This document shows positions 7,301 through 43,901 of a stretch of 43,901 nt of DNA, piece after piece. The stretch is from Trichormus sp. ATA11-4-KO1 (GTDB taxonomy: Bacteria > Cyanobacteriota > Cyanobacteriia > Cyanobacteriales > Nostocaceae): contig JAHHIM010000038.1 of assembly GCA_019358915.1 (NCBI GenBank), positions 1-43,901 on the forward strand, in the 5' to 3' direction. Under the pieces are notes generated by a model. It was given only the letters and a program-made list of their open reading frames with translations, was not told where the DNA came from and searched no databases. The stretch's first letter is position 1. The number at the start of each line of letters is the position of its first letter. The position numbers were made by a program, and so were the translations under genes.

Positions 7301-7416
7301 CAAGAAAGGCAGAAAGGCAGGAGGCAGAAGGGAATTCTACTTCCTGCTCTTTGCCTACGACTGGAAGGAGTAAGGGTTCCTTCTGCCCTCTGCCCTCGTA
7401 CTTCTGCCTTCTTCAA
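7301..7416 (+). mobile_element. 116-bp heptamer-armed non-autonomous element (TTAT|CAAG...TTCTTCAA)
   Basis: Inverted GGCAGAA/TTCTGCC arms; removal restores the host frame; internal core degenerate. Confidence 0.7.
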
Positions 7417-7465
7417 TATTCATGGATTAAGGTCAAGCTACTGCATACAGAAATTGAAAATAGAA

Positions 7466-7645
7466 TTGAAGAAGTCAGGAGCCAGGAGTCAGGAGTCAGA
7501 ATCAATGAGTTGGGGATTCTGACCCGCCACTCATTGTAGACCACCATATTTTTAATTTGGTGGGGGTCTTATACCCAATTATTCATCCGCCAGTCACACA
7601 GAATTCAATTCTGAATTCTGAATCCTGACTCCTGAATTCTGTTTG
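7466..7645 (-). mobile_element. 180-bp heptamer-armed IS200/IS605-like non-autonomous element (minus strand TTAT|CAAAC...TTCTTCAA)
   Basis: AGGAGTC/GACTCCT arms, conserved double-hairpin core, removal restores the host frame. Confidence 0.8.
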
Positions 7646-7722
7646 ATAATTTAACTGGTTACAGAGTAGTAGAAACTTTGCTTCAAAAAGAGAAAATCAC
7701 CGGGATATCCATAAAGCATGAT

Positions 7723-8460
7723 TCAAAAGTTAACGCTGCTAGTTACATGTTGTAGAAGAAAGTGAAAATTAACTTTCTGAGATTGAGGAATACCTATAAT
7801 AGTTGTAGTTGAAGAAACTTGATGTTGAACCAAACTAGGATAAGTAACGAAATAGATTTTTTTAATACTATCCTGTCGAGGATAAATAACATCTTTACTT
7901 AAATCCATAATTTGATTAATATTCAGATTGTTAGGATGATTATTTTGATATAGTTCCCACATTTGGGATAACCATACCTTTGTCTCATTATGATGCCTCC
8001 AATAACATATTGGAGATAAAGTTTCTACTAACTGTTGTCCATATTCTTGAATGGCTTGTGCATACTGAAATTGTTTCCAAGCATAACGTTGCTCTATGTG
8101 ATTACGAATAGCCACCCAATCTAATAAGGGTATATTTGTGGCATCCAAAGAGTAATTTTTAATGAAAAATTGGTATTGAGATATTTCTGATTCAATTTCA
8201 CTGTTTAAATTTTCAATCTTACACAGCCATCGAGGGTCAAATACAGCGACAAGAGTTGCTAACCATTCATACCATTGTTCTGCTTTTATTAAGGAGTGTT
8301 GAAGAGAAGTTTCAATTGAATGTAAATCAAAGGGAGAAACTTTAGTATTACTCTCTATTAATACCCAGACGGCAAAATCAATTTGTTCATTAAATGACAA
8401 TTCAACAAATCCAAGCTGATTGTCCAAATGGAACACTGATGATAAATCTTGTAAGTACAT
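7723..8460 (-). CDS. Hypothetical protein
   Basis: 245-aa ORF, no motif recognised. Confidence 0.65.
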   Translation of the reverse strand: MYLQDLSSVFHLDNQLGFVELSFNEQIDFAVWVLIESNTKVSPFDLHSIETSLQHSLIKAEQWYEWLATLVAVFDPRWLCKIENLNSEIESEISQYQFFIKNYSLDATNIPLLDWVAIRNHIEQRYAWKQFQYAQAIQEYGQQLVETLSPICYWRHHNETKVWLSQMWELYQNNHPNNLNINQIMDLSKDVIYPRQDSIKKIYFVTYPSLVQHQVSSTTTIIGIPQSQKVNFHFLLQHVTSSVNF

Positions 8461-8485
8461 ACGTAAATTTTTGAGAAATACAAAA

Positions 8486-8528
8486 AAATCTTAACAGTAA
8501 TTATAGCAATCAATTACTGTTAAGATTT
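8486..8528. terminator. Perfect 17-bp inverted repeat (hairpin; terminator or RNA-stability element)
   Basis: AAATCTTAACAGTAATT-N9-AATTACTGTTAAGATTT just downstream of the 8540 stop. Confidence 0.55.
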
Positions 8529-8539
8529 ACTTTTAGATA

Positions 8540-8956
8540 CTATTGATAGGCTGCTGTACAGGTAGCAGCAAGCTCTGGGTCAATCGTATAAACATAAACA
8601 CCTCTAGTAGAAATTCCAGATGCAAAACCTTTGATAGTTGCAGCCTCATGCAAATTTCTCCGATTAGGAAAGAAAGCTTTCCTAAAAATTGTAGTTTGTC
8701 CTTGTGGTAAAATTTCGTTAAACTCTTGGGTAGCTTTTCCTCCAATTGTTATTGTAAAAGCTATTTGTCGGATCGGTTTATCCATGTCTGCAACGCTCAC
8801 AGACCACAAAACCTCTGTGCCGTCTGGAAAAATAGTACAATCAATACTAGCGATTCCTCCAGGTAGGCTACGCCGATTTCCTGCTGCAAAAGCTGTATTG
8901 TGCAGGAGGAGTAGACTCATAGATATAAAAGCAGTTAGTCTAGATTTTAGTTTCAT
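8540..8956 (-). CDS. Putative secreted protein
   Basis: Likely start ATG 8956 gives signal peptide MKLKSRLTAFISMSLLLLHNTAFA. Confidence 0.6.
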   Translation of the reverse strand: MKLKSRLTAFISMSLLLLHNTAFAAGNRRSLPGGIASIDCTIFPDGTEVLWSVSVADMDKPIRQIAFTITIGGKATQEFNEILPQGQTTIFRKAFFPNRRNLHEAATIKGFASGISTRGVYVYTIDPELAATCTAAYQ

Positions 8957-9066
8957 GATGAGAATCCAAGGTGAACAGTTTTCACCTGCTTTTGGCGTAG
9001 CCATACTTGCACTTAACAATTTGAGAAAAATAAAGCGATGGGTAAAAACTCCATCGCTCTCCACAA

Positions 9067-9255
9067 TTAACTTAAAATATTAATCACCGCAGCCAGAACA
9101 GCCGCAGCGCGTAGGCGTAGCCCGTCGCAGACATCGCCAGTTGGTACGAATATCCGCTTGCGCCACTGAATAATTTCAGTGAAACATCCAACGGCAACAA
9201 GCCCGTCAGCCAAGGACAGGGCGTTGACTAACTCTATGCGTGGTTCACCAGCAAT
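9067..9255 (-). pseudogene. C-terminal remnant of a strawberry-notch-like plasmid helicase/methylase
   Basis: GEPRIEL..GCFTEIIQWRKRIFVP motif; 5' part replaced by an IS remnant. Confidence 0.55.
9109..9137. repeat. SDR5-type 21-nt insertion inside a HIP1 site
   Basis: GCG[TAGGCGTAGCCCGTCGCAGAC]ATCGC. Confidence 0.8.
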
Positions 9256-9261
9256 GTAAGA

Positions 9262-9654
9262 ACGAAGACCCACTATTTTTTGCCGACAGCATTTTCCTCA
9301 AAAGTTCAGAGAGAATCGAGTCGTTGGCAATGATTATGGGTTTATGTCTGCTGGTTTATACCTTGGCTCAACGTCAAAAAGAAGGGTGTGGGGTGCAGGG
9401 TGTGGGGTGTAGGGAAAATCAGTAGGGGCTTGAACCCACCACTGATTGAAGACCACCATACCGTAGGTTGGTGGGGGCTTGTACCCCTTTGTTTCGGGGG
9501 TAGAGTGTATCCCTACAACACGATTTTTCTTTTCTCCCTACCCCCTACACCCTACCCCCTACACCCTAGTTTTGGTCAAATCAGAACTGCACTCAGAAAA
9601 TCTAATTCCTCTCCGTAATTTCCCTCTGTGACAGTTTAGGGTGCGGAAGGTGGG
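9262..9654 (+). mobile_element. IS1634-family transposase 3' remnant with right terminal repeat
   Basis: DPLFFADSIFLKSSERIESLAMIMGLCLLVYTLAQRQ|IRTAL; end GGGTGCGGAAGGTGGG. Confidence 0.75.
9373..9574 (-). mobile_element. 202-bp heptamer-armed IS200/IS605-like non-autonomous element (minus strand TGAC|CAAAACTA...TTTTGAC)
   Basis: GGGTGTG/A and CCCTACA arms, double-hairpin core, removal rejoins LAQRQ-IRTAL. Confidence 0.85.
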
Positions 9655-9655
9655 A

Positions 9656-9910
9656 TTAAACTCTACGAGTATACGCAAAAAATGTAGCAATAGCTGCATC
9701 TACAATCGTATTTCTTAATTGATAAGATTCACTAGTACAAATGCAGAAAGCAATCGAAATGAACGAACACCAGCTAAACATTAAAATCCAATAATGGTAA
9801 TCAGAAAACAGAATAGTTGGGTATCTATCGACGATTATCTTTACAAATTTGCTCCCTATGAATGCAAAAGTAATAAACAAAACCAATTGTGCAATTACAA
9901 TAAAATCCAT
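9656..9910 (-). CDS. Small membrane protein
   Basis: 84 aa, hydrophobic segments, AGGAG SD. Confidence 0.65.
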   Translation of the reverse strand: MDFIVIAQLVLFITFAFIGSKFVKIIVDRYPTILFSDYHYWILMFSWCSFISIAFCICTSESYQLRNTIVDAAIATFFAYTRRV

Positions 9911-9997
9911 AGCATTCTCTCTCCTAGATTAAAATTATCATCAAAGCAAACTCAATTGCTTCACGTAGATTTCTTGTGAATGCTCACGCTTGATGTG

Positions 9998-10031
9998 AGC
10001 GATCTGCTTGCAGCGCTGCAAGTAGATCGCT
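9998..10031. repeat. 34-bp near-perfect palindrome with HIP1-derived ends
   Basis: AGCGATCTGCTTGCAGCGCTGCAAGTAGATCGCT. Confidence 0.75.
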
Positions 10032-10035
10032 CTGT

Positions 10036-10275
10036 TTATGTGTGGCTCAATTGCCAGCCTTGTCTTTGCAAGATTTGGTTCAAACGATTTTGGTATTTAT
10101 CCTTGAGTTGTTCTGCAAACTCTTGCGACATATAATTCTGATTTTCTAAATCTACTAAATCTTTTTTAATAGACTTAACTAAGCATTTGTCACAAATATA
10201 TTCAAAAGGCTGTAAATACTCTGAATCTCCGCATTTGTCGCACCCTGCTAAGACTACAATTTTGATAGTTTCCAT
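10036..10275 (-). CDS. Small Zn-finger-like protein
   Basis: CDKC..CDKC, AGGAG SD. Confidence 0.65.
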   Translation of the reverse strand: METIKIVVLAGCDKCGDSEYLQPFEYICDKCLVKSIKKDLVDLENQNYMSQEFAEQLKDKYQNRLNQILQRQGWQLSHT

Positions 10276-10367
10276 TTTTTTCTCCTAGTTAAAGTTGTCA
10301 AATCAAATAAATTCTTTGGGAGCAACTGTGCGCCTATTCTGCAAATATAGGCACACAGTTTAGTTAA

Positions 10368-10766
10368 TTAAGCGGATTTCTTGCGAGTTCTGCTACGCTT
10401 TTGAGGGGATTTAGCTGTGGTAGTGGATTGAATACTTTCGCTCTGTGCAGGTGGTAGTAATCTCAACGCAGGGAATGGTATTACTACTGTTTGCGGTTCG
10501 GTTGTAGTATTTTGAGGCTCTACTTCCAATTTCCAAGGGTCAGGAATTTCTTCAAACTGATATTCTTGATGTGCTTCAGATTCCGCAACAACATGATTAG
10601 GAATATCGTTGATTTCTGCAACTGGTGAAGGGGGTTGTGCAGAAACTATATATTTAGGTTGAGCGAAACTCAAGAAAATCCCATTAATGAAATCATTGAG
10701 CATGAAACTAATCATTGCCCAAAAGATAACTTCTATAGCTAAAGTGAGTGTGCTTTGAATATCCAT
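10368..10766 (-). CDS. Hypothetical protein with N-terminal TM segment and basic tail
   Basis: 132 aa, GGAG SD. Confidence 0.7.
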   Translation of the reverse strand: MDIQSTLTLAIEVIFWAMISFMLNDFINGIFLSFAQPKYIVSAQPPSPVAEINDIPNHVVAESEAHQEYQFEEIPDPWKLEVEPQNTTTEPQTVVIPFPALRLLPPAQSESIQSTTTAKSPQKRSRTRKKSA

Positions 10767-10851
10767 TTTATTGGCTCTCCAGAAATACTTTCATTTAAAT
10801 GACGCGTAGCGTTTCTAGCCCCGTACAAATGTGCGGGGCTTTGGTAAACCA

Positions 10852-11118
10852 TCAGAATGGTGCTTCAATTTCAGTAACTTGAATATTTAATGCTGAGATG
10901 AATTTAATATTTTCATGACACCAATTTGTGGAAAACTTAGAAAGATTGAGCAAACCTTCCAGAAGAAATACCTCATCTGTAGTGCGGAGATATTGCTTTT
11001 CTGCTTGGTTCCACTGTCTTTTGCTGCCATCAGAAACAGCAGCTAAAACCGAATTGAACAATTGTATACTCATACGAATTCTCGCTAAATCCTCATGAGT
11101 GTTGCGCGTAGCGTTCAA
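10852..11118 (-). CDS. Hypothetical protein
   Basis: 88-aa ORF between hairpins; start codon uncertain. Confidence 0.5.
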   Translation of the reverse strand: MNATRNTHEDLARIRMSIQLFNSVLAAVSDGSKRQWNQAEKQYLRTTDEVFLLEGLLNLSKFSTNWCHENIKFISALNIQVTEIEAPF

Positions 11119-11231
11119 TATATAGAAGCGAGATAGTTTTATCTATCTCGCTTTTACCTATTAATTTCGCCTTAGTTTTGATAGTGGAGTTGGGTTGAAA
11201 TGTAAATTACGTCCTCAACTCCACTATCTTC

Positions 11232-11741
11232 TCAAAATCCTTTGTACTTGACCCATGAATTCCACACATTTAGCACTGGCTTATTTTGACTTTTGGCATA
11301 CTTAATGCAATTGCCAGTACCACCAGAAGAGCCATCATATAGTGCGAGTACTTTTGTACAATTATCTATCATGTATTCATTGCGGTTTTGCATTTTCGCA
11401 GCACTATATCCTGAACTGGAATTAGCGTACCTGCCCATTTTATCTACGCAAATAATCCGAGTACTGCACATCAGTAGATGATCGTAGCGAACCTGATCAT
11501 TATGATTCCATTTGCACTCTTGACCTTCAAAGGGGATAGCTGCAATTAGAGGAATGTTCAACTCGATAGCGGCTGTAGCCAAGGACTGATCAAATCCTAG
11601 AGCCATGCCAGAAATAACTTGATCCGGCTGAAGTCTCTCCAAAGATGCTTGGCACAGTGCTACAAGTCGAGTAAAAACTTTATTTGAATAACCACCAAGT
11701 TTTTCAGGACGGTGACCTGTACCAGCGATGATTTTAGTCAT
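11232..11741 (-). CDS. SLOG superfamily protein (YspA/DUF1273-like)
   Basis: TGHRP, SGMALGFD, RNEYMID, GGTGNC motifs. Confidence 0.85.
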   Translation of the reverse strand: MTKIIAGTGHRPEKLGGYSNKVFTRLVALCQASLERLQPDQVISGMALGFDQSLATAAIELNIPLIAAIPFEGQECKWNHNDQVRYDHLLMCSTRIICVDKMGRYANSSSGYSAAKMQNRNEYMIDNCTKVLALYDGSSGGTGNCIKYAKSQNKPVLNVWNSWVKYKGF

Positions 11742-11869
11742 ACGAATACTCCTAATTTCATAACTAAACTCACTACTTTTCAGGCGTAGCCTTATGTACT
11801 TGAAATCTCTACTACAAAAGTTAAGATTCTAGTTGGTGGGAACAAACAATATCCAATTCAAACTAAACA

Positions 11870-12109
11870 ATGCCAAGCAAAGAAATATACGTCCGAGAAT
11901 ACACAGTCAGAGCGCACAAACGAGAGATTCACACCCGCGTCTTTAAATTCATTTGCAAACAATGCGATCAACCAACCGAACGCGAAACTTATGGCCCTCG
12001 TCCTTTGTACTGTGAGCAATGCCGTCCGCCGCAACCTCCTAAGAAATCACCAGTGCCTCTTAACAAACGCAAGCCTAGACCTATAACTTATCGTAGTAAT
12101 GAGAGCTAG
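11870..12109 (+). CDS. Small Zn-ribbon protein
   Basis: CKQC..YCEQC, basic. Confidence 0.7.
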
Positions 12110-12167
12110 GTGGTATGATTTTCGATACTTGAGATATCAAGCCTGAAGGGATAAATTTTCCAAAATT

Positions 12168-13139
12168 ATGTCCACCCAAAGTTCTGATCCACTTCACGTC
12201 TACCTGCAAGAGATTGGCCGTTACCCAATGCTGACCCCAGAGCAAGAGATTACTTGCAGTAGGCAAGTGCAGCAGATGATGCTAATTGAGCAACAGAAAC
12301 ACGCCCTGATGCAAAAACTACATCGAGAGCCAACTTTGGCTGAATTGGCTGCTGATATTGACAAAAGTGAAACTGAGTTAAGCAACATTCTTCGCCAAGG
12401 TCAGCAAGCTAAACAAAAAATGATTACAGCGAATTTACGCTTGGTGGTAGCGATCGCCAAAAAGTACAAGTGGTGTAATTTGGAACTTTTGGACTTAATT
12501 CAAGAAGGTGCGATAGGTTTGCACAAAGCGGTAGAGAAGTTCGACCCCAATCGAGGTTACAGATTCTCTACCTGTGCCTATTGGTGGATTCGACAAGCAA
12601 TCATGGGAGCAGTTGCCGAAAAATCCCGTACAGTTCGTCTACCATTGCATTTGACCGATAAACTGCTGCAAATCAAGAAAATACAGCACGAAATAGCGAA
12701 AACACAGGGTCGCAGTGCCACAATCACAGAAATAGCTCAAGCTTTAGGTACACAGCCAAATCAGATTTGGGAATATCTGGGTGCATTTCGCCCACTTGTT
12801 TCTTTGGACGTGCGAATTGGGGAGGAGCGAGATACAGAACTTCAGGAAATTTTGCCTGATGAAAACATCTCTCCAGATGAGCTTCTGATTCAGGAATTTT
12901 TTCAACAAGATTTTGACAATTGGTTAGGAGCGCTCTCCCCAATCCAACAACAAGTCTTAACACTGCGGTTTGGATTGAGGAGCGATTGTGCGGAGTACAG
13001 TGCCCAAAGCAAGCTCACTGTGAAGCAAATTGGAGAAAGGCTGAATATCCCTCCATCACGAGTCAGTTATATTCAACAACAAGCGATGAAAATTCTGTAT
13101 TCTCAACAAGAACAAATACGCCCGTACTTAGCTTCTTGA
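12168..13139 (+). CDS. Group-2 sigma-70 factor (plasmid-borne)
   Basis: YLQEIGR, ANLRLVVAIAKKY, DLIQEG, KFDPNRGYRFSTCAYWWIRQ. Confidence 0.93.
   Translation: MSTQSSDPLHVYLQEIGRYPMLTPEQEITCSRQVQQMMLIEQQKHALMQKLHREPTLAELAADIDKSETELSNILRQGQQAKQKMITANLRLVVAIAKKYKWCNLELLDLIQEGAIGLHKAVEKFDPNRGYRFSTCAYWWIRQAIMGAVAEKSRTVRLPLHLTDKLLQIKKIQHEIAKTQGRSATITEIAQALGTQPNQIWEYLGAFRPLVSLDVRIGEERDTELQEILPDENISPDELLIQEFFQQDFDNWLGALSPIQQQVLTLRFGLRSDCAEYSAQSKLTVKQIGERLNIPPSRVSYIQQQAMKILYSQQEQIRPYLAS
12982..13010. repeat. 21-nt in-frame SDR-like insertion in a HIP1-like site within sigma region 4
   Basis: GCGAT[TGTGCGGAGTACAGTGCCCAA]AGC adds 7 codons after LRFGLRSD. Confidence 0.55.
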
Positions 13140-13265
13140 ATCACCAAAATTTGGACTCTTGTGGTGCCTGTTAAATTTTTTGACTACATTCTATAACTAA
13201 TACCAAATTATTGTGAAGTTGCAGAAATCAAGCGAAAATTGAAAGGATGGTGAAAATAAAAGTTA

Positions 13266-14375
13266 ATGGACGATCAACCACAATTACCCTCTGCTCCTGA
13301 TAGCTTTGTTAATCCACTGTTAAAATTACGAGAATATTATGCTCCTATTGTAGGAAAGTACGAAAAGTTATACACCGAAGCCTTAGCAAATCTCAATCAT
13401 GTAGAAGCATTATTATCTGTTTGGTCTGATAACGGCAACCTGCCAACTCTAGAGGTGATGAATAAGCCAGTCGCTTCTAATTTAAAAAACTTGCCCTTGG
13501 AGGATAATGATTTCACCCCTGAGCCAAAAGTTAACTTAGTAGAGCCTGTTAGTTCTCAACTGTCTGCAACAGAAAATTTGTCGTCTTTTGCAAAGCAAGA
13601 GGTAGTTACATCCGTACCCGAAGGAAATAGTGATCGCATTATTAAACAACCAGTTGAATTGGTAGAGCTAATTGATTTTGTGCCAAAAACTTCAGAATCA
13701 CAAGAAGAGGACGATTCATCAGAGTCAATATCTACGGACACAAAGACACCAGAAGAATCTCCAGAGAAATCGCTCTCTTGGTCAGAAATTCCCATGCTAC
13801 CGCAATACCAATCTCTAAACCGCACTGAAGCAATTCTCAAGGTATTGCAGAAACATGCTGGAAGTGTCTGTCACATAAGTTTGATCATGCGATCGCTCTA
13901 TGGTGATCTACAGCCAGAAGCTTTGAAAGTAGTAAAAGGTAGAGTTCATTCATCATTGACTCATGGCAAAGAAAGCGGTAGATGGTCATTGATTCCAGAC
14001 GAACCTGGGTGTTACACGCTGGATTTGAAACTACTCAATTCTAATGGTCGTAGTTCTTCTAAGCAGAGCAAAAATAGAAAACCTTCACCAGTAGCAAAAA
14101 CCAATCTCATCCCCATGATTGGAGAATTTTCTGGACAAGTTCTGATTGATGCCATTAGCTCTTTACTGGAAAAAAATCCCGGTAAAATATTTACTATAGC
14201 TGAAGTAATTAATGGACTGTGCGGAGAACTTGATGGTCAAGAATTTAATCAGATCAAGTCCAAGGTAGTAAAAGAATTATCACGAGGACATCGTACAGGA
14301 CGATTCTCAAGAGTGCCTGAACAAATAGGACTTTACACCTGGGACTCGAAGTTGCTCCCCAAAGGTAAACGCTAG
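13266..14375 (+). CDS. Hypothetical protein with two related C-terminal winged-helix-like repeats
   Basis: Repeats AI..L.K..G...I.....L.G.L.....K..V...L..G...GR.S.P...G.YT.D. Confidence 0.75.
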   Translation: MDDQPQLPSAPDSFVNPLLKLREYYAPIVGKYEKLYTEALANLNHVEALLSVWSDNGNLPTLEVMNKPVASNLKNLPLEDNDFTPEPKVNLVEPVSSQLSATENLSSFAKQEVVTSVPEGNSDRIIKQPVELVELIDFVPKTSESQEEDDSSESISTDTKTPEESPEKSLSWSEIPMLPQYQSLNRTEAILKVLQKHAGSVCHISLIMRSLYGDLQPEALKVVKGRVHSSLTHGKESGRWSLIPDEPGCYTLDLKLLNSNGRSSSKQSKNRKPSPVAKTNLIPMIGEFSGQVLIDAISSLLEKNPGKIFTIAEVINGLCGELDGQEFNQIKSKVVKELSRGHRTGRFSRVPEQIGLYTWDSKLLPKGKR

Positions 14376-14403
14376 TTGAATGAAGGTAAACGCTAGTTGA
14401 ATG
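14362..14403. repeat. 21-bp perfect tandem duplication spanning the stop codon
   Basis: AAGGTAAACGCTAGTTGAATG x2. Confidence 0.85.
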
Positions 14404-14422
14404 CATTTACCAAAACTCATCT

Positions 14423-14842: not shown

Positions 14843-14962
14843 TTGAATGATGTGTCAGCTAAAATAATAGTGAAACTCAATGTGATATGTAACTATTATG
14901 GTTTTAAATACAGATAAAATATTATTAATCACTTCAAATAAATTTCAAAAACCCCAAATTGA

Positions 14963-15847: not shown

Positions 15848-15856
15848 TAACGCAAC

Positions 15857-32237: not shown

Positions 32238-32711
32238 TTTGATTGTGTTGGTAATTTTTGGATCATCTGTTCTACAGATTCAATTGCAACTCCTTTGCCT
32301 TGATCAATTTCGGATAAACCCTCTTTGACCTTTTTTGAATTCAAAATTCAAAATGCAAAATGCAAAATGAAGAAGAAATAAAAAAATTGAATTAATTAAT
32401 TCTGGGTACAAGCCCCCGTCATAATCTCTGATTTGACGGTCTTAGATTAGTGGTGAGTCCCCTACGGGAATTAAAAATGCAAAATGCAAAATGCAAAATG
32501 AAGAAGAAATAATTTTGAATTTTGAATTGATAATTTTGAATTGTTTTGCCCCCATTAATCTCTTTAATTTTGAATTTTGCATTTTTAATTTTGAATTGGA
32601 GCGAAGCGACTTGACAGCAGCAATAAATTCGATTTTCCGAAGAATCTCACGCAGAGTCACATTTTCGGGTAAGCGTTTTACAAGTTCAAGAACTGTTTCT
32701 CGGTCACTCAT
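32210..32711 (-). pseudogene. Small antitoxin-like protein interrupted by an insertion
   Basis: Reconstructed MSDRETVLELVKRLPENVTLREILRKIEFIAAV|KEGLSEIDQGKGVAIESVEQMIQK... Confidence 0.7.
32330..32615 (+). mobile_element. 286-bp heptamer-armed IS200/IS605-like non-autonomous element (TGAC|CTTTTTTGAA...GCGACTTGAC) with a nested insert
   Basis: CAAAATT/G and AATTTTG arms, same termini as 43576-43778, removal restores the host frame. Confidence 0.88.
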
Positions 32712-32769
32712 GCTTTTATCCAGATGATTAATGTCATCTTAACTTATTCTCAATTCTCTAAAGTCTACT

Positions 32770-33375: not shown

Positions 33376-33377
33376 AA

Positions 33378-33782
33378 TAATTCGTAATTCGTAATTCGTA
33401 ATTATTTTTCTTTGAGTTTTCTGGTTGAAGCGGTTAAAATTTTTCCTATTTCATTTGCCTCTGTCAAAAGTAAGGTAAATTTTTGCTGTTCTACTAGTTC
33501 AGATTCGATTAATATTTCTAACCAGTATTGGGTTTCTCTTGCCTCCTTTAACGCGATTTCTAATTTGTTAATAAAATCTTTGTCAGATTGGGCTGATTGT
33601 GCTTCTCGACAATTTGCACCTATTGAAGTTCCAGAACGAAGCAGTTGTTTAGACAAAGTTCTTAAAACTCCAGACTTTTCATCCAGAAAACAACAAGCTT
33701 TAATAATTCTGACCGCAAATGCTTTAGTTCTATGCGTTATGCTAGTTTTCATCTTCAATTACGAATTACGACTTACGAATTA
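33378..33782. repeat. Inverted TAATTCG arrays enclosing copy A
   Basis: 33378-33403 vs 33757-33782, 25/26 complementary. Confidence 0.9.
33402..33752 (-). CDS. Four-helix-bundle protein (23S rRNA IVP / Avd-like), copy A
   Basis: KQLLRSGTSIGANCREA..SDKDFINKLEIALKEARETQYWL. Confidence 0.92.
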   Translation of the reverse strand: MKTSITHRTKAFAVRIIKACCFLDEKSGVLRTLSKQLLRSGTSIGANCREAQSAQSDKDFINKLEIALKEARETQYWLEILIESELVEQQKFTLLLTEANEIGKILTASTRKLKEK

Positions 33783-35557: not shown

Positions 35558-35611
35558 CTTTTCACCTCCGGTGAAAGCAGGGGGGCAGGGAGCTCTTAGC
35601 AGGGGGAATAA

Positions 35612-36125
35612 TTAACGTTTTATTAGCCAAGGTGATGGATTATTGATTATGGTTACTAAAATACCTAGAACTTTGTTATAAGTTCCATATAATTCCCTAC
35701 CTGTTTCAACATCTAAATAGCCGCATTTCACTGCAAATTTTAGCCATGTTTGTGTTTCTGCGGACTCTGCTTCACAGTCATTTAATTTAGCGATAAAAGC
35801 AGCTTCGTAGCGTCGCTTTCTCCATGCTTCTGCCATATTTGCACAAACAGAACGAGATGATCTACGAATTTGATCTGTTAATGAGTATCTTTCTTCAATA
35901 GGGAATTTCTTAGATAGGTCAAAAATTCTCATTGCGACATCAAATGCCATTTTATAAACTTCTAAGTCCTCATGGTTTTTTATTTATGAAAAAAAAGTTA
36001 GGTTCAAAACCTCGCCCCTTGTGGGCGAAACAGTCCTTGTATCCCAAGGTAGGTAGAAACCCCACCCCTTGTGGGTGGCTGTATTTAATTTTGAATTTTG
36101 AATTTTGAATTTTGAATTGATTCAT
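35612..36125 (-). pseudogene. Four-helix-bundle protein copy B; 5' end interrupted (an ORF remains from ATG 35950)
   Basis: MNQ|IKNHEDLEVYKMAF..FPIEERYSLTDQIRRSSRSVCANMAEAW. Confidence 0.85.
35984..36116 (+). mobile_element. ~130-bp double-hairpin element with an AATTTTG array (boundaries approximate)
   Basis: GGTTCAAAACCT-CGCCCCTTGTGGGCG and GGTAGAAACC-CCACCCCTTGTGGGTGG. Confidence 0.7.
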
Positions 36126-36157
36126 CTCCCCTGCCCCCTGCTCCCTGCCCCCCTGCC

Positions 36158-36826
36158 CTACTTTACAGCCCTAATTCGTTGTGTAATCCCGGGTGTTCCT
36201 GAATATCGAGCATTCCTGAGTTCTTGGAATCTAGTCACCAAATTACTGGTTTGTTCTTCGTATGGAGTCGGTTCTTTTTTGGCTTTTTCTGCCGACAGTT
36301 TTTCCTGTTTCTTGGCTTTGGACTCAGAATATTGGTCAGCAATCTTACCCAAACTAATAGTCAGGTCATCTTGTGCAGAAGCGATCGCCGAACGTGACCC
36401 ACCGACAATTTGTCTAAACTTCGACTCCAAATTAGCTAAGGATGTCCCTAAGTTCTTTTCCAATTCAGCGTGTTGTACTCTGGCTTCAGCCACATTTTCA
36501 CTGACTTCGGCTTGCTTCTCACGTACTTTGTACAAAGCTTTGAGGTAGCGACTAATAGCTGAAGAGTATTCTGTCCATTTTTTTGACTGAAACTCTGCAC
36601 CTTTGGCTTTATCCAGGGCATCAGCAATATCTTCTTCGGTTAAATCTCCAAAGACTTTCACATCCACAGGCAACATATCAGCAATGCGTTGGGCATTTTC
36701 CCAAACTGCTGACTCTAGACCAAAGTGGGAATCTGGGAATACTATTGCTTTGCTAACATCACCACTCAAATCCGAGAGGTTTAATGCTCCATCTTTGGGA
36801 GTTTCTGGCTTAGATCCTCTGACCAT
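36158..36826 (-). CDS. Coiled-coil hypothetical protein
   Basis: 222 aa, GAGG SD. Confidence 0.8.
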   Translation of the reverse strand: MVRGSKPETPKDGALNLSDLSGDVSKAIVFPDSHFGLESAVWENAQRIADMLPVDVKVFGDLTEEDIADALDKAKGAEFQSKKWTEYSSAISRYLKALYKVREKQAEVSENVAEARVQHAELEKNLGTSLANLESKFRQIVGGSRSAIASAQDDLTISLGKIADQYSESKAKKQEKLSAEKAKKEPTPYEEQTSNLVTRFQELRNARYSGTPGITQRIRAVK

Positions 36827-36828
36827 GA

Positions 36829-37230
36829 CTACCTCACGTCTATTAGCGAATCACAAGGTTTATATTCGACAAACACATCATCATCAAGTTCTGTCCATTC
36901 ACCATCTAGTGAACGAAAATAACGGGTATTATTTTCTAATTTGACTTCTAAATTAATCTCAGGGAATTTGAAAATATTTTCTTTCTCAATTACCCTGGTT
37001 AATTCAGTATCGATTCCCACTTTTAACCCTAGATGTAACGTGATTCCTTGCTTTTTGTACTTCTGCCAGTAGTACGAAAACTCATCTTTTTTGAGGAAAT
37101 TAACATTGATTATAGGAATGCCATTTTCAAACAATATTGCAAAAATCCCTAGTGGTTCATGATGAATTTTGGCAATTCCCAGATTATTCTCGTAGCACCA
37201 GTACGCTCGATGAAAATACGCTGTTTTCAA
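36829..37230 (-). CDS. Hypothetical protein (AT-rich)
   Basis: 133 aa, overlaps the upstream stop. Confidence 0.6.
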   Translation of the reverse strand: MKTAYFHRAYWCYENNLGIAKIHHEPLGIFAILFENGIPIINVNFLKKDEFSYYWQKYKKQGITLHLGLKVGIDTELTRVIEKENIFKFPEINLEVKLENNTRYFRSLDGEWTELDDDVFVEYKPCDSLIDVR

Positions 37231-37829
37231 AAGTCGTCCTCCAGTTGTTTGAATTTTTCTTCTAGTGGATCAGATTGCTTCGGCTTACCTGCGAACACTT
37301 TTTCTACTTTCTTGATCAACAGTTTGGCTAAAGCTTGCCACACCAATGACCAAGCCCGTTGGTTCTTGAGTCTGAATTGACTCGCCACAATATCTGCTTT
37401 AGATGGAATAATTGCCCCATATTGCTCCAGATTGTTAATCGCTTGCTGGAATGAAACCACTTCATCCTCGGTTGCTGGGAGGTCGGGGGCGACGGCTGCG
37501 GTCAATCTTTCCATCACCCCGCTTAACGTTGCAGATTCCTCTTTTATCTTCTGCAATTCTTCTGCCATTACCTCAATTGCTGCCAAGTTTGACTGGGCGA
37601 TGCAAGACTGGAAATTCAGTAAGTGCGATTCGAGTTGGCGTTGTACTTCCTCGCTGATGATTTCCGTGACGGCATTAAATCCTTTCCCTTGATTTACAGA
37701 ATCGATGAAATCCTGAATTTCAGATGAGATGCCCTGAGAATGCAACTCCTGTTTTTCCCCCCTGACCCCTGCTCCCCGCCCCCTTGTTTCTTCAGGCGAC
37801 ACTGGCGTTGCACTCGAATTGTCCATCAT
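37227..37829 (-). CDS. Hypothetical protein
   Basis: 200 aa; N-terminus includes a degenerate heptamer tract, so the start is uncertain. Confidence 0.7.
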   Translation of the reverse strand: MMDNSSATPVSPEETRGRGAGVRGEKQELHSQGISSEIQDFIDSVNQGKGFNAVTEIISEEVQRQLESHLLNFQSCIAQSNLAAIEVMAEELQKIKEESATLSGVMERLTAAVAPDLPATEDEVVSFQQAINNLEQYGAIIPSKADIVASQFRLKNQRAWSLVWQALAKLLIKKVEKVFAGKPKQSDPLEEKFKQLEDDF

Positions 37830-38313
37830 CTAAGTCTCTCCACTCCAATTTCACGCCTAAACGAGCTGCAAATCCATCAATTGTTTGTTTCATCGTTTCA
37901 TAAGGCAAATAATCACAACTATCAATTAATTGCTCCAACTCCACATCAATAAAATGTTGCTGTGCTACCGCTTTTTGCTCTCGCTTTTTTTGAGCCATCT
38001 TTGCTCTAGCCTGTTGTTTACCTTCCTCTTTTGCTTTTTCAATCGCTTCTAATCGAGCTATTTCTAATGCCTCTGTAACTTGACGTTCTTTGTCCTGCTG
38101 TTCAAAGATTATGTGCTTGTCTCGTACTAATCTTTGAATAATCGCCATTCGTAAATCCAAGTCAAAGGCAATTTCTAACTCCTCAATCACTTGCGCTTCT
38201 GACTGTTGTTGATGAGTTGTAATTTCTGATTTTCTACCTCTGGTAATACTTTTACTTTGGGTCTGTACTGCTGTTTCTTCTGGTACTGTTATTTCTGAGC
38301 CTCTACGTGCCAT
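37792..38313 (-). CDS. Coiled-coil hypothetical protein
   Basis: 173 aa, TAAGGAG SD. Confidence 0.8.
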   Translation of the reverse strand: MARRGSEITVPEETAVQTQSKSITRGRKSEITTHQQQSEAQVIEELEIAFDLDLRMAIIQRLVRDKHIIFEQQDKERQVTEALEIARLEAIEKAKEEGKQQARAKMAQKKREQKAVAQQHFIDVELEQLIDSCDYLPYETMKQTIDGFAARLGVKLEWRDLDDGQFECNASVA

Positions 38314-38344
38314 ATTTTTCTCTCCTTAATGATTAGAATTCAGA

Positions 38345-38767
<423 letters not shown>

Positions 38768-38768
<1 letters not shown>

Positions 38769-38854
38769 TAGCTAAAATTACAATATTCTCCGCACAACAC
38801 AAAATTAATTGTGAAGGCCAAAGCGTTATTGAATCCGTCTAACAATCGAATCAT
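38768..38854 (-). CDS. Possible 28-aa coupled peptide MIRLLDGFNNALAFTINFVLCGEYCNFS
   Basis: ATGA overlap with the upstream stop; its TAA abuts the heptamer arm. Confidence 0.35.
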
Positions 38855-39666
38855 GCACACCTCTTTTGTGATGCGATTTTTTCCCACTTGGCTAACTCTG
38901 AAACCGAATAATGCTTGCGTTGGCTAAATTCACCCCACTTATATAAAGTGCGAATTGAAACTTTATAGCCACACATTGCCAAATATCTGTGTAAGTCTCT
39001 CCCCTTACATCCCCTCATCCGCCATTGATGCCACATTTTGGCACTCGATGCTGTCTCCAAGGTCATCGCCCGACGCGACCAATGTTTCATCATCGTGATT
39101 AAGCGGCTGATTGAGGGAAACTTTTTTGTCGGATGATCATGCCTCCAACACGCCATATATGTCAGTAAAGAGGCTGTCCCCTCCTCCACATAGCGTTCAT
39201 ACCTTGGAATCCCTAGATATTGTTTCCAACTTGCCCAACAATTCCTGGATATCTCCCGCCCCATAATTCGGTCGCAGCATTTCTTTACCTCACTTAACGC
39301 TATTTTTTCTGGTGGTGCTTTGACTTCATCTGCGACAAATACTTCACCTGAATTTACCTGTTCGCAATACTTATCAAATACTTCCTCCAATTTGTATTCA
39401 TTGGCTTTGTAGTAATCTCTCAGGCTTCTATAAGTGACTTTTTGCCGTGGATTCTCCTTCCTTAACCATGCCAAACACAACAGCATTTTTGTCTGCTCTT
39501 GTGTGTACTGACGAGCCGATACTCTCTTGCCTTGTGCATAACAAGCCCCCGCTAATCGCTCCCAGTCATACCATGTGCGATCGCTGATTTTACATCCGCG
39601 AATCTTTTCACAAATATTTCTCAGATTGCTTGATTGGCTGATCCAATCTTCTAATACTACTGGCAT
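38851..39666 (-). CDS. Putative DNA-binding protein with three MerR/excisionase-like HTH repeats
   Basis: KISDRTWYDWER, EISRNCWASWKQ, KVSIRTLYKWGE repeats. Confidence 0.7.
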   Translation of the reverse strand: MPVVLEDWISQSSNLRNICEKIRGCKISDRTWYDWERLAGACYAQGKRVSARQYTQEQTKMLLCLAWLRKENPRQKVTYRSLRDYYKANEYKLEEVFDKYCEQVNSGEVFVADEVKAPPEKIALSEVKKCCDRIMGREISRNCWASWKQYLGIPRYERYVEEGTASLLTYMACWRHDHPTKKFPSISRLITMMKHWSRRAMTLETASSAKMWHQWRMRGCKGRDLHRYLAMCGYKVSIRTLYKWGEFSQRKHYSVSELAKWEKIASQKRCA

Positions 39667-39828
39667 GGTTAAAGCTCTGCAAAATCAAAGCGGCTGTCAA
39701 TATTGAAAGTGTAATTGCCATAATGGCTGTACAAAATTCTAACAAACCTGATGGATTTCTTTCTTCCTTTTCTATTGTCTCAGTTGCACCATCAAGAGTT
39801 GTTTTGGTGTATTTCTCTCTCCTGTACA
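39608..39828 (-). CDS. Small TM protein, start unclear or disrupted
   Basis: VYRREKYTKTT..FCTAIMAITLSILTAALIL. Confidence 0.45.
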
Positions 39829-39840
39829 CATGATTATCTC

Positions 39841-40188
39841 CAATTCGCAGTTCGCAGTTCGCAGTTCGCAATTAAATACCAATTTTAAAAAAGATGCGAC
39901 AGATACACACTCTCAAATCCCTGTCATATCTAGCTTTTTTAATGTTGAAGAATTAGTATGAGAACCCACAACTGTAGCTTGTTTCCCTGTAGCGGTAGTT
40001 GAGGACTTGAATATTGATGGGTGAGCAATTTCTTTTTTCGCATGATTGAAATCAGGAGCTTGTAGCCTGAGTGAATTAATCTTAAATGTTCCATTCATAA
40101 TTGCGAATTGCGTTCGCGGAGCGTGCCGTAGGCTCTATTGCAAATTGCAAATTGGTATAACTCCTGACTCCTGACTCCTGACTTCTAT
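39841..40188. repeat. Composite of heptamer arrays, an SDR-like insert and an IS605-like hairpin fragment
   Basis: TTCGCAG array, TTGCAAA/TTGCGAA units, GACTCCT array, GCGTTCGCGGAGCGTGCCGTAGGC. Confidence 0.7.
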
Positions 40189-40537
40189 TCCTGTACACAT
40201 TACGCTATCTCCGTATATTTGGATATCTGTACTTACTCCGTCTGTACTACATTCACTACCCTATGAGAAAAAAATGTACCAACTTTCCGGGGTTTAAGAA
40301 TCAGATTATGTACACTCAGCTTCCTAACGTTCTGCTGAATCCCTTTCTAGCAAGCATTTCAGCGTTGTAGTACAACAGTAGCACATTAATCTATGGTTTT
40401 TGGCAATCTTTGAAAAGTCTATTTTTGGTAAATTCAGCAGAATGAATGTAGTCTGTCATTGAAGGCAAAAATTTAATGAATCCTTGTCTAACCAGTGTAT
40501 TTGGCTGTAATCAGCAACTATTCCGCAGGGCATTTTT

Positions 40538-40885
40538 TTAGAGGATTGACACGCGAGTTAGTTTTTGCTGTACTGAGTCTCTATGTATCTTTTTTAATGC
40601 TAATAATCTGGCATTTACATCAACTCCATAGCTTTGAAATGTCTGTTCAATCTGCTCACGGGTCATTTGGCAGAAGTCTTCCTTGCTGTTTCTCCCGTGT
40701 TTTAAACCTAAAAATATTTGCAGTTCTAAAATTTTTTGAACCTGTTCCCAACTCAGGTACTTGTTTCCAAAAAAATTTAAAGCCTTCAAATATTTGTTGA
40801 TGGTGTCCTTAGATTGAATTTTCAGTAAACTTCGGCATTGTTTTATGCTGATTTTCTCCATTGGCTGGTCGAACTGTTGAACCAT
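40538..40885 (-). CDS. Small HTH-like protein
   Basis: ISIKQCRSLLKIQSKDTINKYLKAL. Confidence 0.65.
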   Translation of the reverse strand: MVQQFDQPMEKISIKQCRSLLKIQSKDTINKYLKALNFFGNKYLSWEQVQKILELQIFLGLKHGRNSKEDFCQMTREQIEQTFQSYGVDVNARLLALKKIHRDSVQQKLTRVSIL

Positions 40886-40953
40886 AACTAAATATTAAAA
40901 TACCCACACTTGGTGGGCAAGCATTTGAATTGCACATTGTGCAGTTAATTATC

Positions 40954-41181
40954 TTAAGCTGCACAATGTGCAATCTTGATATATTTTTTTCTAGTCTCTG
41001 GATTAGTATTTAAAAATATATGCAGCCTATTTAACTCGTTTAATGTTCTTTGGCTGACTCGGCGATCGCCATTACTCCACTTGTCAACAATAGATGTGGA
41101 CACTCCCATTAATTCAGCAAGTGAACGATGATACATGGGATGTTTAATAAAAAAGTCGTTTAAACTTGTAATTTCTGTCAT
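40954..41181 (-). CDS. Cro/XRE-like HTH regulator
   Basis: LAELMGVSTSIVDKWSNGDR. Confidence 0.8.
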   Translation of the reverse strand: MTEITSLNDFFIKHPMYHRSLAELMGVSTSIVDKWSNGDRRVSQRTLNELNRLHIFLNTNPETRKKYIKIAHCAA

Positions 41182-41358
41182 AATGCAATCGCTCCTTACT
41201 ACAGGTGTAGTCTGTGGTTGGGAGAAGTCCCGATGACTAGCCTCATCGGGGCGTTCTTTTTATTCTGTACCATTTAGATACCTAAGATAGTCCATTTAGT
41301 GACTAAATAGTTGCCATTTGTCGATAAAATTAGAAGTATTGTTGCCATATTCCACATC

Positions 41359-41694
41359 ATGAGAAAACGTGATCGCCGATTTCCGGTAAATCTTCCTATT
41401 GTTAAAGAAATTCGTTTGTCTTTGTGGGGACATACCAGAGGTGTTTCTAAGACTCGTATGGCCGAAGCTATTTTAATTGATAGAGTGTCTAATGCAGATA
41501 ACTGGGATGAAGTTTGTAAAGATTTACAACAAGAAGCAGCCATACTGAAAATTCCCGTGGAGGAACTAATTAAACAAATACTCAAAGCTGATAAATACGA
41601 TGAATCTATTGATGTGGATGGCGTTGACTGGAGTTGTCTAATGGAAGATGGTGAAATTGAATTCCCGCAAGAAGAAGACGAACAGGTCGATTAA
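41359..41694 (+). CDS. Hypothetical protein (possible ribbon-helix-helix regulator/antitoxin)
   Basis: MRKRDRRFPVNLP..LSLWGHTRGVSKTRMAEAIL, acidic tail. Confidence 0.65.
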   Translation: MRKRDRRFPVNLPIVKEIRLSLWGHTRGVSKTRMAEAILIDRVSNADNWDEVCKDLQQEAAILKIPVEELIKQILKADKYDESIDVDGVDWSCLMEDGEIEFPQEEDEQVD

Positions 41695-41721
41695 AATTCT
41701 TTTGCCAGATAAGAAATTGTC

Positions 41722-42276
41722 ATGCCAACAACCGTAAAGCTAATTCGCGGTCAAGATAGCATCAATGTGGAAGCAGATTTAGTAGAGTTGACACAAAAAC
41801 ACGCTGATGAGTATACCGAACAGTGGAAAGAACAGTTAAGGCTGTACGAACAAGAAGATAAGTTTTGGGATTGGGAGTTTAAGCTTGAGTTTGTTATCAA
41901 TAGGCAACCAAACCGGGAAGGTTATGCTATCGAGTACAAAGGTGAAACCCAGGGTTTGATGATCATTGAAACTCAATTGCATGGTTCACGCTTGGCAGAA
42001 GGTCAACGGTTGATTTATGTTGATGGCATTGCTTCTGCTCCTTGGAATCGTGAGGTTATCCAACGTCCACCAAAGTATAAAGGTGTTGGCACTGCTTTAC
42101 TAAGCTTTGCTAGAACCCGTAGCCTAGAACTTGGTTTTGAGGGTAGAGTGGGACTACACTCTTTGCCTGGGGCAGAAAAATTTTATGAACGTCAAGACAT
42201 GATCGACTTGGGTGAAGATGAAGATTACGATGATTTGATTTACTTTGAGTACGGGTTATGGAGTTCTTCTAAATGA
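41722..42276 (+). CDS. GNAT-family acetyltransferase
   Basis: YVDGIASAPWN..YKGVGTALL..VGLHSLP.AEKFY. Confidence 0.85.
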   Translation: MPTTVKLIRGQDSINVEADLVELTQKHADEYTEQWKEQLRLYEQEDKFWDWEFKLEFVINRQPNREGYAIEYKGETQGLMIIETQLHGSRLAEGQRLIYVDGIASAPWNREVIQRPPKYKGVGTALLSFARTRSLELGFEGRVGLHSLPGAEKFYERQDMIDLGEDEDYDDLIYFEYGLWSSSK

Positions 42277-42288
42277 GGTGTCAGATCA

Positions 42289-42825
42289 ATGAATCAGCAC
42301 GAATTTCATGAAAATCACAATAACCCTGGACAAAATAACCAAGTAAATCCAATGGATTTATTACTTGATGAAGAATTTTTACGGCAAGCTGTGGAAGCTG
42401 AGGAGCTTGTCGGCGGTAACATTGGTGCTGGATTAGATTGGGGAAGTGCATTTGGCGACCTCATGCTTAACTTTGAACTTATGGGGCGTTTCACAACTTT
42501 ACGGATTTCCCTGAATAGAGAAGTCAGGTTGCTACTTAATGACTGGAATTTAGGTACAGCCACAAAAATAGCCGTTAAAACAGCAAGAGAAAGAATACTT
42601 GAAAAATTGAGATTGCCTACACCATTCGTAAGACAATCTCTACTTTTAGCTCTAAGGAACGATGAACTTTATGGTGAGGAGTTCATATCTAATCACGAAA
42701 TATTACACGAGTTACTAGAGTTATTATTGACACCTCAAGATTGGGAAAATATTGCCGCAGTAGCAGCAGATTCGCTCAAGCAGCAAATTATTTACCAAGC
42801 GGTTGGTGAGAAAATATCGGCATGA
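42289..42825 (+). CDS. Hypothetical protein
   Basis: 178 aa, GAGG SD, operonic with the GNAT gene. Confidence 0.75.
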   Translation: MNQHEFHENHNNPGQNNQVNPMDLLLDEEFLRQAVEAEELVGGNIGAGLDWGSAFGDLMLNFELMGRFTTLRISLNREVRLLLNDWNLGTATKIAVKTARERILEKLRLPTPFVRQSLLLALRNDELYGEEFISNHEILHELLELLLTPQDWENIAAVAADSLKQQIIYQAVGEKISA

Positions 42826-42877
42826 GTGCGATTTAAAACATGATCGAAGTAACACCAGAGCAGAAAATTTTTACACA

Positions 42878-43901
42878 AGAACTCTTGCATAAATATTTTT
42901 TGGTATAATGAAGGGTTATTTTTCTTGACGTTAAAGAAGTTAAAATAGCCACAATTTACAAAGTTTCTCATATTAACTGTTGCTGGAGAGTCCTTACTTA
43001 AAAAGTTGATATAGCAAACTGGTTCAGCAATTATTTATTTGCTGAATTAGGATGATTATTTCTGCTTTATTTAAGCTTTTAAAGCTAATTCATGATTGTA
43101 GATTCCGGCAATCAAATTAGACCTTAATCCAAATCTGCGATGGCGATTTCGGTATTGATTAGATAAAATATTGAATATTTTTAGCCGACGATTAACGTGT
43201 TCAACCACAATTCTTAATCGATTAAGTTCTCGATTAGATTGCTTCTGTTCTTTAGTCAATTTCTTACCTTTCAGTTTCTTAATCGGTGTTTCGCTTAATT
43301 GATGAATTTTCTTAATCCCTTGATAGCCTTTATCCGCGATAACTTTGAGCAATTCTCCAAATCTTACACCACTTGTTTTAAATAGCCGAAAATCATGATT
43401 TCTTCCCTTACCATGCCCTAGACAAATAACTTGACCGCTTTTTTGGCAAACTATTACTTGCGTTTTTAAAGTATGTTCTCCTTGTTTACCGCTAAAAAAT
43501 TTTTTTTGCCCTTTTTGTGGTCTTTCAATTGGACTTTCCATTACATCCATCACAACTAATGCTTCCTGTGATGACCTTTTTTGAATTCAAAATTCAAAAT
43601 TCAAAATGCAAAATGAAGAAGAAATAAAATTTTGTAATTGATTAATTCGCTCGTTCAAGCCCCTGCCATAATCTTTGATTTGGCAGTCTTAAATTAGTGG
43701 CGAGTTCAAGCTCCCACTAATTGTCTTTAATTTTGAATTAATAATTTTGAATTTTGAATTGGAGCGAAGCGACTTGACATTTTTAATAGCTCTTTCTTAC
43801 CAGGTAGGCTGAACTTTCTTGAACTGATCAATATATTTTCAATTTTGTAAACTGTTCGACATACTGCGGATTCTGAAAGTCCCCAATCTAATCCAATGTG
43901 A
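42878..43901 (-). mobile_element. IS5-family (IS702/ISL2-like) element, running off the window; transposase interrupted
   Basis: End AGAACTCTTGCATAA at ~42878; HIGLDWGLSES..LPGKKELLKM|SSQEALVVMDVMESPIERP..HD..ADKGYQG..RIVVEH. Confidence 0.88.
43576..43778 (+). mobile_element. 203-bp heptamer-armed IS200/IS605-like non-autonomous element (TGAC|CTTTTTTGAA...GCGACTTGAC)
   Basis: Same termini as 32330-32615, double-hairpin core, removal restores the transposase frame. Confidence 0.9.

Follow-up and report, generated by a model that had tools for sequence, protein, structure and literature searches.

The 43,901-nucleotide (nt) stretch of DNA from Trichormus sp. ATA11-4-KO1 that we analysed, referred to here as the window, holds four mini-elements in which arms of unrelated heptamer repeats surround one common kind of core, and the question that it raises is what moves such elements and what determines where they begin and end. 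A first-pass annotation of the sequence had proposed that tetranucleotides inside each core (guides) select the ends of the element by the rule known for the insertion sequence (IS) IS608, and that a Y1/HUH transposase acting in trans moves the elements. In IS608, guide position 4 pairs with site position 4. The left site TTAC and the right site TCAA are served by the guides AAAG and GAAT (PMC3201880, PMC3597680), and guide positions 1 and 2 are described as pairing with site positions 2 and 1 (PMC5934647), as the annotation had stated. Our comparisons make it quite probable that the elements form a non-autonomous family of IS200/IS605 type, resembling the PATEs (palindrome-associated transposable elements), that moves as single-stranded DNA with the help of a Y1 (HUH) transposase provided in trans.

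The evidence that carries this reading comes in the first place from comparing guides with ends across the family. Ends were called without the guides, as the points at which pairwise similarity between copies stops, which gave 136 callable left ends and 127 callable right ends among 167 elements; the guide was taken as the 4 nt directly 5' of each C-run, and its prediction followed from the IS608 cross-pairing rule. The predicted pattern stands at the boundary in 93 of the 136 left ends and 81 of the 127 right ends, against means of 51.3 and 41.9 and maxima of 70 and 57 in 5000 shuffles, and each predicted pattern is present at 1.5-2.9% of genome positions. The left classes are AAGA, AAAA and AATA with TTAT, AAGT, AATT and AACT with TTAA, CAAG and CAGG with TGAC, and GAGT with TCAA; the right classes are GAAT with TCAA, CAAG with TGAC, CAAT with TGAA and AAAT with TTAA. 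The first-pass annotation had pointed to such a correlation between guides and flanks across genomes, and had named the pairing of guide position 4, which covaries with the site in this data set. Since the copies are kin, switches within one body type weigh more than these totals, and such joint switches of guide and target are found in three arm subfamilies. Among elements with AGGAGTC arms, AAGA goes with TTAT (27/35) and AAGT with TTAA (7/8). Subfamily D2 of the GGCAG-arm elements pairs AAGA with TT.T (3/3), AAGT with TTAA (3/3), CAAG with TGAC (1/3) and CAGG with TGAC (1/1), and subfamily D1 pairs AAGA with TTAT (7/8) and GAGT with TCAA (2/4); one D2 copy combines TGAC on the left with TCAA on the right, and both agree with the guides that serve them. 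Left target and right end are predicted separately, each by the guide that belongs to it. We did not use a base-triple idea (loop base 2 being C if the guide starts with G, 63/82 versus 7/54), which comes almost wholly from one class and is further weakened by the guide caller's mis-registering of the AAGA class.

Sites found both filled and empty form the second line of evidence. The flanks of 205 cores were compared by BLAST with this genome and with stored loci, and 14 loci of this genome were queried against a genome of the same genus (G001), giving 15 informative filled/empty comparisons and four further sites filled in both genomes. Eleven of the 15 are precise (L097, L135, L173, a copy nested in another element on contig C28, C55:82k, C55:58k, C36:497k, C2:135k, C36:346k, C33:47k and C73:165k), with the element lying 3' of the tetranucleotide. 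At four of these (the nested C28 copy, L135, L097 and C73) the ends are unlike, TTAT on the left and TCAA on the right, and the empty site contains no duplication, so that a target duplication is excluded there; we note that the empty paralogues of L097 read TTCT and that the flanks of L135 are only ~81% alike. The seven other precise sites have the same tetranucleotide at both ends and alone cannot exclude a 4-bp duplication. The four remaining comparisons are ambiguous: the empty site of L219 is 4 nt short, C55:219k has an 11-nt duplication in G001, and C4 and C6 are occupied by other sequence. At one orthologous site a stretch of 750 nt proved to be unrelated sequence. Taken as a record of past events, the precise sites show that the elements are mobile and that insertion is oriented and precise, 3' of a tetranucleotide that is not duplicated.

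The same sites bear on whether the elements are classical MITEs (miniature transposable elements with inverted repeats) moved by a DDE transposase, with the heptamer arms as terminal inverted repeats and TGAC or TTAA as a 4-bp target duplication. Such elements would have complementary arms, as these do, and in the CAAG and AAAT classes one tetranucleotide flanks the element left and right and is single in the empty site; a DDE transposase gene also adjoins the window element at 43576. The absence of duplication at the four TTAT...TCAA empty sites nevertheless runs against this explanation, as do termini that are not inverted copies of each other and a single core common to unrelated arm sequences, and no dependence of the target on a tetranucleotide inside the element would be expected from a DDE enzyme. 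The variable duplications typical of DDE transposition, which the first-pass annotation had named as the contrary outcome of an empty-site comparison, are not the pattern found. We consider the MITE explanation extremely unlikely and have rejected it, the unlike-end empty sites largely refuting it.

The IS200/IS605-type reading also draws on the structure and spread of the core. Searches found about 20 cores in this genome with nhmmer and 27 with a covariance model, the latter a scan that the first-pass annotation had suggested and that matches 80 of 101 genomes of the host's family (filamentous cyanobacteria). A pattern with both guides left free matched at least 119 loci, and among the 80 matches listed nearly all are cyanobacterial, mostly from Nostocales; 48 plasmid records contain a match, and among the 40 of these that were listed most have no annotated feature under the match, PCC 7120 included. 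One copy (L058, AP018208.1:30765-30947) lies under an annotated RarA-fusion gene of a Calothrix plasmid, which indicates that insertions can strike coding regions. In 86 model-aligned cores 95.5% of 1858 cells are paired, and 11 of 22 core pairs have changed on both sides, more than in 500 shuffles or in any of the slid controls, statistics that lean in the model's favour because the alignment was fitted to it; the core hairpins are conserved by compensatory changes. According to the folds and the core model, the left guide precedes hairpin 1 and the right guide lies within the loop of stem 2. GGG/CCC closes this loop and recurs at most left guides. Adjacent and central in the element, the guide modules are direct repeats of each other. 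In 92 of 143 elements the two arms of one element are reverse complements by our measure (score at least 14), compared with 12% across classes; it is these long subterminal arms that are complementary, not the termini themselves. The median linkers between cut site and guide are ~75 nt on the left and 53-57 nt on the right. We also note that palindromic inserts of 20-30 nt, which we take to be SDR-like, recur in the linkers, arms and right ends of elements at many loci (among them L258, L271, and C73:63781 and C2:134988 of this genome), and that another abundant repeat of ~200 nt with inverted ends, unrelated to the core, occurs in this genome at C27:25262-25463 and C55:269.7k and in ~40 copies in G001.

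Within the window, the four elements described in the first-pass annotation lie at the coordinates and on the strands that it gave, with TTAT before the 7466 element and TGAC before the other three (Table 1). Their cores align and heptamer arrays flank them, in keeping with the layout proposed, from which two of them depart: the 32330 element has no second guide and the 43576 element has no GGGT before its left guide. The start of the annotated range, 7301, belongs not to a listed element but to a fifth one, a core-less shell on the plus strand that has complete relatives on other contigs and lies ~50 nt from the end of the 7466 element. In the 7466 element the guides AAGA and GAAT accompany the target TTAT and the end TCAA, as the rule predicts, and the prediction that CAAG goes with TGAC at both ends of the three CAAG elements agrees with the ends found, with the qualification that the 32330 element has a left guide only. 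Having the same tetranucleotide at both ends, these three cannot by themselves separate guide logic from a 4-bp duplication. The distance from left cut to guide is 75 nt (7466), 93 nt (9373), 79 nt (32330) and 80 nt (43576), and that from right guide to end is 50 nt (7466), 56 nt (9373) and 68 nt (43576), much as the first-pass figure of ~50-95 nt had stated. Its remark that the 9373 element starts like IS608 also holds, the first 8 nt being the same in both (PMC3597680, supplement file 2). A copy of the 7466 element that is 100% identical lies on contig C28 between different flanks, and BLAST matches to it in other genomes stop at its two ends; the 9373 element has a 99.5% identical copy on C28, again with different flanks, and the first 130 nt of the 43576 element are identical to a copy on C28. 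The segment at 32459-32547 contains an empty site, with the junction at 32509/32508 (minus strand, after TTAT), whose C28 counterpart is filled by the copy of the 7466 element; this is the nested case mentioned above. For two of the window's four elements we looked for empty sites as well and found none, the flanks being too diverged. The folds of the four elements beat all of 100-200 shuffles (z = -5.8, -4.4, -5.2 and -6.7).

Table 1. Positions in the window of the mini-elements, their parts and other features
Feature	Position	Strand	Details
Complete mini-element, 180 nt, AGGAGTC-type arms	7466..7645	-	Ends TCAA (7466-7469)
Target tetranucleotide TTAT, left cut site, outside the 7466 element	7646..7649	-	Boundary calls, empty-site form
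Core of the 7466 element	7502..7577	-	Hairpin 1, preceded by left guide AAGA (7567-7570); then, after a short linker, stem 2, whose loop holds right guide GAAT (7516-7519)
Left heptamer arm of the 7466 element	7607..7641	-	Pairs with right arm 7473-7499 in the fold
Core-less shell, GGCAG-arm subfamily	7301..7416	+	After TTAT (7297-7300), ends TCAA; no guide
Complete mini-element, 202 nt, GGGTGTA arms (9536-9568, 9383-9414)	9373..9574	-	After TGAC (9575-9578), ends TGAC
Core of the 9373 element	9415..9488	-	Guides CAAG (9478-9481) and CAAG (9429-9432)
Mini-element, 286 nt, CAAAATT arms	32330..32615	+	After TGAC (32326-32329), ends TGAC; sole guide is left CAAG (32409-32412)
Arm-like sequence, ~89 nt, in place of the right guide of the 32330 element	32459..32547	+	Contains the empty form of another element's site
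Complete mini-element, 203 nt, CAAAATT arms	43576..43778	+	After TGAC (43572-43575), ends TGAC; guides CAAG 43656-43659, 43707-43710
Gene for a 1583-aa protein	2467..7218	+	No Pfam family match; relatives carry homologous DNA
DDE transposase fragment	43071..43553	-	PF13359/PF01609; ~20 nt from the 43576 element
Four-helix-bundle gene	33402..33758	-	PF05635, bAvd-like
Four-helix-bundle gene	35612..35950	-	PF05635, bAvd-like
Four-helix-bundle gene	38368..38733	-	PF05635, bAvd-like
Inverted heptamer arrays	39844..40183	+	Around ~200 nt of unique DNA and a small palindromic insert; no gene or core identified

If the elements move as we suppose, TnpA would bind the compact two-hairpin core, and the guides would capture cut sites ~75 and 55 nt away, much as in target capture. 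The complementary heptamer arms would zip the long linkers into one stem and so bring both cuts side by side, after which the element would leave as a single-stranded circle and re-insert at the site of the left guide. Where both ends carry the same tetranucleotide, a deletion between the two guide repeats would yield a one-guide hairpin that is probably still mobile. The idea that the arms unite both ends, already put forward in the first-pass annotation, fits their complementarity, although one copy has a left end of 29 nt that is free of heptamers.

A number of observations weigh against this explanation. The rule misses 43 left and 46 right calls, and while many of these are mis-called boundaries or guides, others are genuine exceptions, in which CAAT guides accompany an end TCAA or TTAA, G-guides go with TTAA (which a G-T wobble could account for), and TTAC or TGAG stands with CAAG. 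Because the elements are kin, independent switches number about six to eight rather than hundreds. Two anchored runs gave totals of 69/106 and 38/70, low largely because the anchor for CAAAATT arms, off by one base, scored 3/19 in one and 9/25 in the other. Instead of preceding a hairpin foot on its 5' side, the right guide occupies a hairpin loop, and the longest linkers tried with IS608 are 27 and 20 nt, which it tolerates with an approximately six- to sevenfold loss (PMC3597680). Searches of this assembly found no TnpA (best E-value 0.18 in a local search with hidden Markov models, best tblastn value 0.026), though identical copies show recent movement, and none of 79 Y1 (TnpA) loci is bounded by the core. 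Four one-guide copies with an altered guide (CAGAG or CAGAA) still sit at TGAC, two of them with clean empty sites, and one core-less copy has a precise empty site; 71 nt that this last copy has in common with another locus point to a recombination after insertion.

These altered copies belong to a wider set of reduced forms that the first-pass annotation had missed and that weakens its strict model of two guides in cis. About nine TAATTCG-arm copies in this genome carry a single fused guide module, at TGAC; the form folds into one long hairpin with the guide at its tip. Two one-guide copies do not differ over 131 nt, and the empty site of each is clean, from which it seems most likely that the one-guide form moves as such. 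Four CAAAATT copies lack the right guide and keep both ends. Given these reduced, guide-less and heptamer-less copies, the guide in cis and the arms may not be strictly required. It is conceivable, then, that the guide/site logic is ancestral only: the elements would descend from IS605 ends and now move without a cis guide, with a TnpA bound to another hairpin, or some other host enzyme, reading the arm stem and the terminal tetranucleotides. The one-guide copies at TGAC (four of them with altered guides), the copies without a right guide, the core-less copy and the missing TnpA would all suit that account. It does not readily explain why guide and target switch together within near-identical subfamilies, why left and right vary separately, or why compensatory changes are kept in the core hairpins. 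Moreover, the direct repetition of the guide modules allows a core to be lost once the element has inserted, a loss reported for PATEs (PMC3119063), and one shell is differently shortened in a sister genome. We therefore regard a purely ancestral role for the guides as unlikely.

The reading in which a Y1 enzyme acts in trans on the guides agrees with the guide/flank covariation, the duplication-free empty sites and the use of the same guide/site pairs by autonomous IS605 elements; what speaks against it is the lack of TnpA in the assembly, where repeats may be unassembled. One sequencing run, kept as contigs and possibly from the source sample, shows a further flank for the 7466 element and no element joints, and no RNA run was listed as containing the elements. 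TnpA is present in 39 of 41 genomes, and in seven of seven that are element-rich. Autonomous cyanobacterial IS605 ends use AAAG-TTAC, CAAG-TGAC, AAGA-TTAT, AATT-TTAA, GAAT-TCAA and AAAT-TTAA, with 11-15 nt spacing and a CCCC...GGGG hairpin. The first-pass annotation had proposed looking for autonomous tnpA/tnpB versions of the elements, and no such parent was found among the 79 Y1 loci, in 30 TnpA loci (on which model R1 gave no significant match) or in 65 metagenome loci matched by an interrupted-core pattern, which are mostly chance GC-rich matches, the true ones having tiny inserts only and no TnpA nearby. The only TnpB gene found in this genome (L001, C55:270-271k) is IS1341-like, with a canonical GAAT guide and a TCAA right end, and lacks a partner TnpA in the assembly; a search of this genome for IscB (RRXRR) was also empty, but as the RRXRR control matched nowhere, this blank carries no weight.

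In their remote cut sites and long fold-back shapes the elements are reminiscent of REPINs, and one might ask whether a repetitive extragenic palindrome (REP)-type enzyme (TnpA-REP/RAYT) or a domesticated Y1 enzyme spreads the elements, which would make them REPIN-like and not PATE-like. Cyanobacteria are reported to carry Y1 subclasses 1.2, 2.4, 2.7 and 2.8, subclass 1.2 being without typical terminal hairpins (PMC6006769), and divergent Y1 proteins of this sort are present in element-rich genomes. The divergent Y1 genes examined are, however, not bounded by the core, one decayed core lying ~530 nt from one such gene, and REPs are described as having a fixed GTAG tag and dinucleotide cuts (PMC8266576), whereas the guides here vary and the sites are tetranucleotides of the IS605 set. 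An enzyme of this kind acting on REPIN-like elements thus seems to us very unlikely.

What sets the family apart is the combination of long linkers, complementary heptamer arms, adjacent central guide modules, a looped right guide and one-guide copies that appear mobile. It is possible, though we hold this only tentatively and rather doubt it, that the elements represent a distinct class of Y1 substrate, with a looped and remote guide, cuts at a distance of 45-95 nt where an exchangeable stem of heptamer repeats has its base, a minimal form in which one guide serves both ends, and repeated natural retargeting by single-base guide changes, perhaps served by a Y1 enzyme kept by the host and not by an IS. 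One may speculate that the right guide in its GGG/CCC loop is a circular permutation of the usual IS605 end. The family offers a natural retargeting series for DNA-guided transposition, small as it is yet with six classes of guide and five targets, and it is directly testable, since elements lie unannotated on plasmids of laboratory strains such as PCC 7120. Should TnpA accept a guide held in a loop and linkers 4-6 times the usual length, the end rules of IS200/IS605 are wider than thought, and this would in turn bear on the engineering of programmable single-strand insertion. The proposal also offers a mechanism for one class of cyanobacterial MITE-like repeats without a matching IS, and for a small share of STRR repeats.

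How small that share is can be seen from the 492 heptamer arrays in this genome, 22 of which have a full core nearby; counting any guide module in a loose definition raises this to 48, where random placement gives 11. The elements do carry heptamers to new sites, as the first-pass annotation had suggested for the spread of STRR repeats, and this explains at most a tenth of the arrays; a major role in spreading them is rejected for this genome. The commonest array, of ACTCAGC type (149/492), is not an arm of the elements and needs its own explanation. In the window, inverted heptamer arrays bracket at least two of the PF05635 genes (33378/33757 and 38340/38739), with no guide core or terminal tetranucleotide rule seen, and these genes between inverted arrays are a second type of heptamer-armed cassette. 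The window itself is contig C38 of an assembly of 5.97 Mb in 73 contigs (99.9% complete), has a plasmid-like look with topoisomerase, FtsK-type and KilA-N genes, and gave no Rfam match over its whole length.

Lastly, we compare the elements with known systems. With the REP, REPIN and BIME repeats and their TnpA-REP (RAYT) they share many short fold-back copies, a tetranucleotide guide and, as we suppose for the elements, a Y1 enzyme in trans; unlike those repeats they have variable guides in place of a fixed GTAG/CGTC tag, tetranucleotide and not dinucleotide cuts, and no transposase gene found flanked by them. The type II MITEs, NIS and SDR of Anabaena sp. 90 resemble them in hosts, size range, multiple inverted repeats and the lack of a matching IS, but are described as inverted-repeat MITEs without a guide/site rule; as the type II MITEs are given there by coordinates only, the likeness rests on descriptions (PMC3542288). 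The guide rule and the architecture were not found in the literature covered, in the portions available (including PMC4810608, PMC3184786, PMC3733652, PMC4679880 and PMC4390886), with earlier cyanobacterial repeat catalogues and ISfinder outside it, and the element sequences may already be known under a MITE name.

The closest comparisons are with the IS608 group and the PATEs. Like IS608 and its relatives, the elements have guides that are cross-complementary to their sites, with tetranucleotide pairs in common, a C-run that follows the guide, insertion on the 3' side of a site that is not duplicated, and a left linker longer than the right (PMC3597680), and the 9373 element shares its first bases with IS608. 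Unlike that group, they are gene-less, their guide modules are adjacent and central, no CCCC...GGGG hairpin follows the guide, the right guide sits in a loop where the group has a guide 5' of a hairpin foot at both ends, and there are complementary heptamer arms. Their linkers of ~75 and 53-57 nt also exceed the 15-16 nt (left) and 8 nt (right) reported for the IS200/IS605 family in 76 and 80 IS (PMC3597680), or a short-linker range of ~15-19 and 8-10 nt. Because of linker length and guide position, and with a Y1 enzyme that is putative, we do not file them as canonical IS200/IS605 elements. PATEs, which some cyanobacteria are said to contain (PMC4853749, on the authority of a review), are described by Dyall-Smith (2011) as short, non-coding and without target duplication, with IS605-type boundaries, with reduced forms that arise by core deletion between repeated palindromes, and as often invaded by smaller repeats, all of which has its likeness here (PMC3119063). 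PATE palindromes are, in that description, near-terminal and match autonomous IS605 elements, whereas those of our elements are central and no parent was found, so that only the guide with its C-run and the first bases resemble IS605 ends; and PATEs are defined there as lacking inverted ends, whereas our elements have complementary subterminal arms around termini that are not inverted. Since their guide logic is that of IS200/IS605, the elements would nonetheless work in the way that PATEs do.

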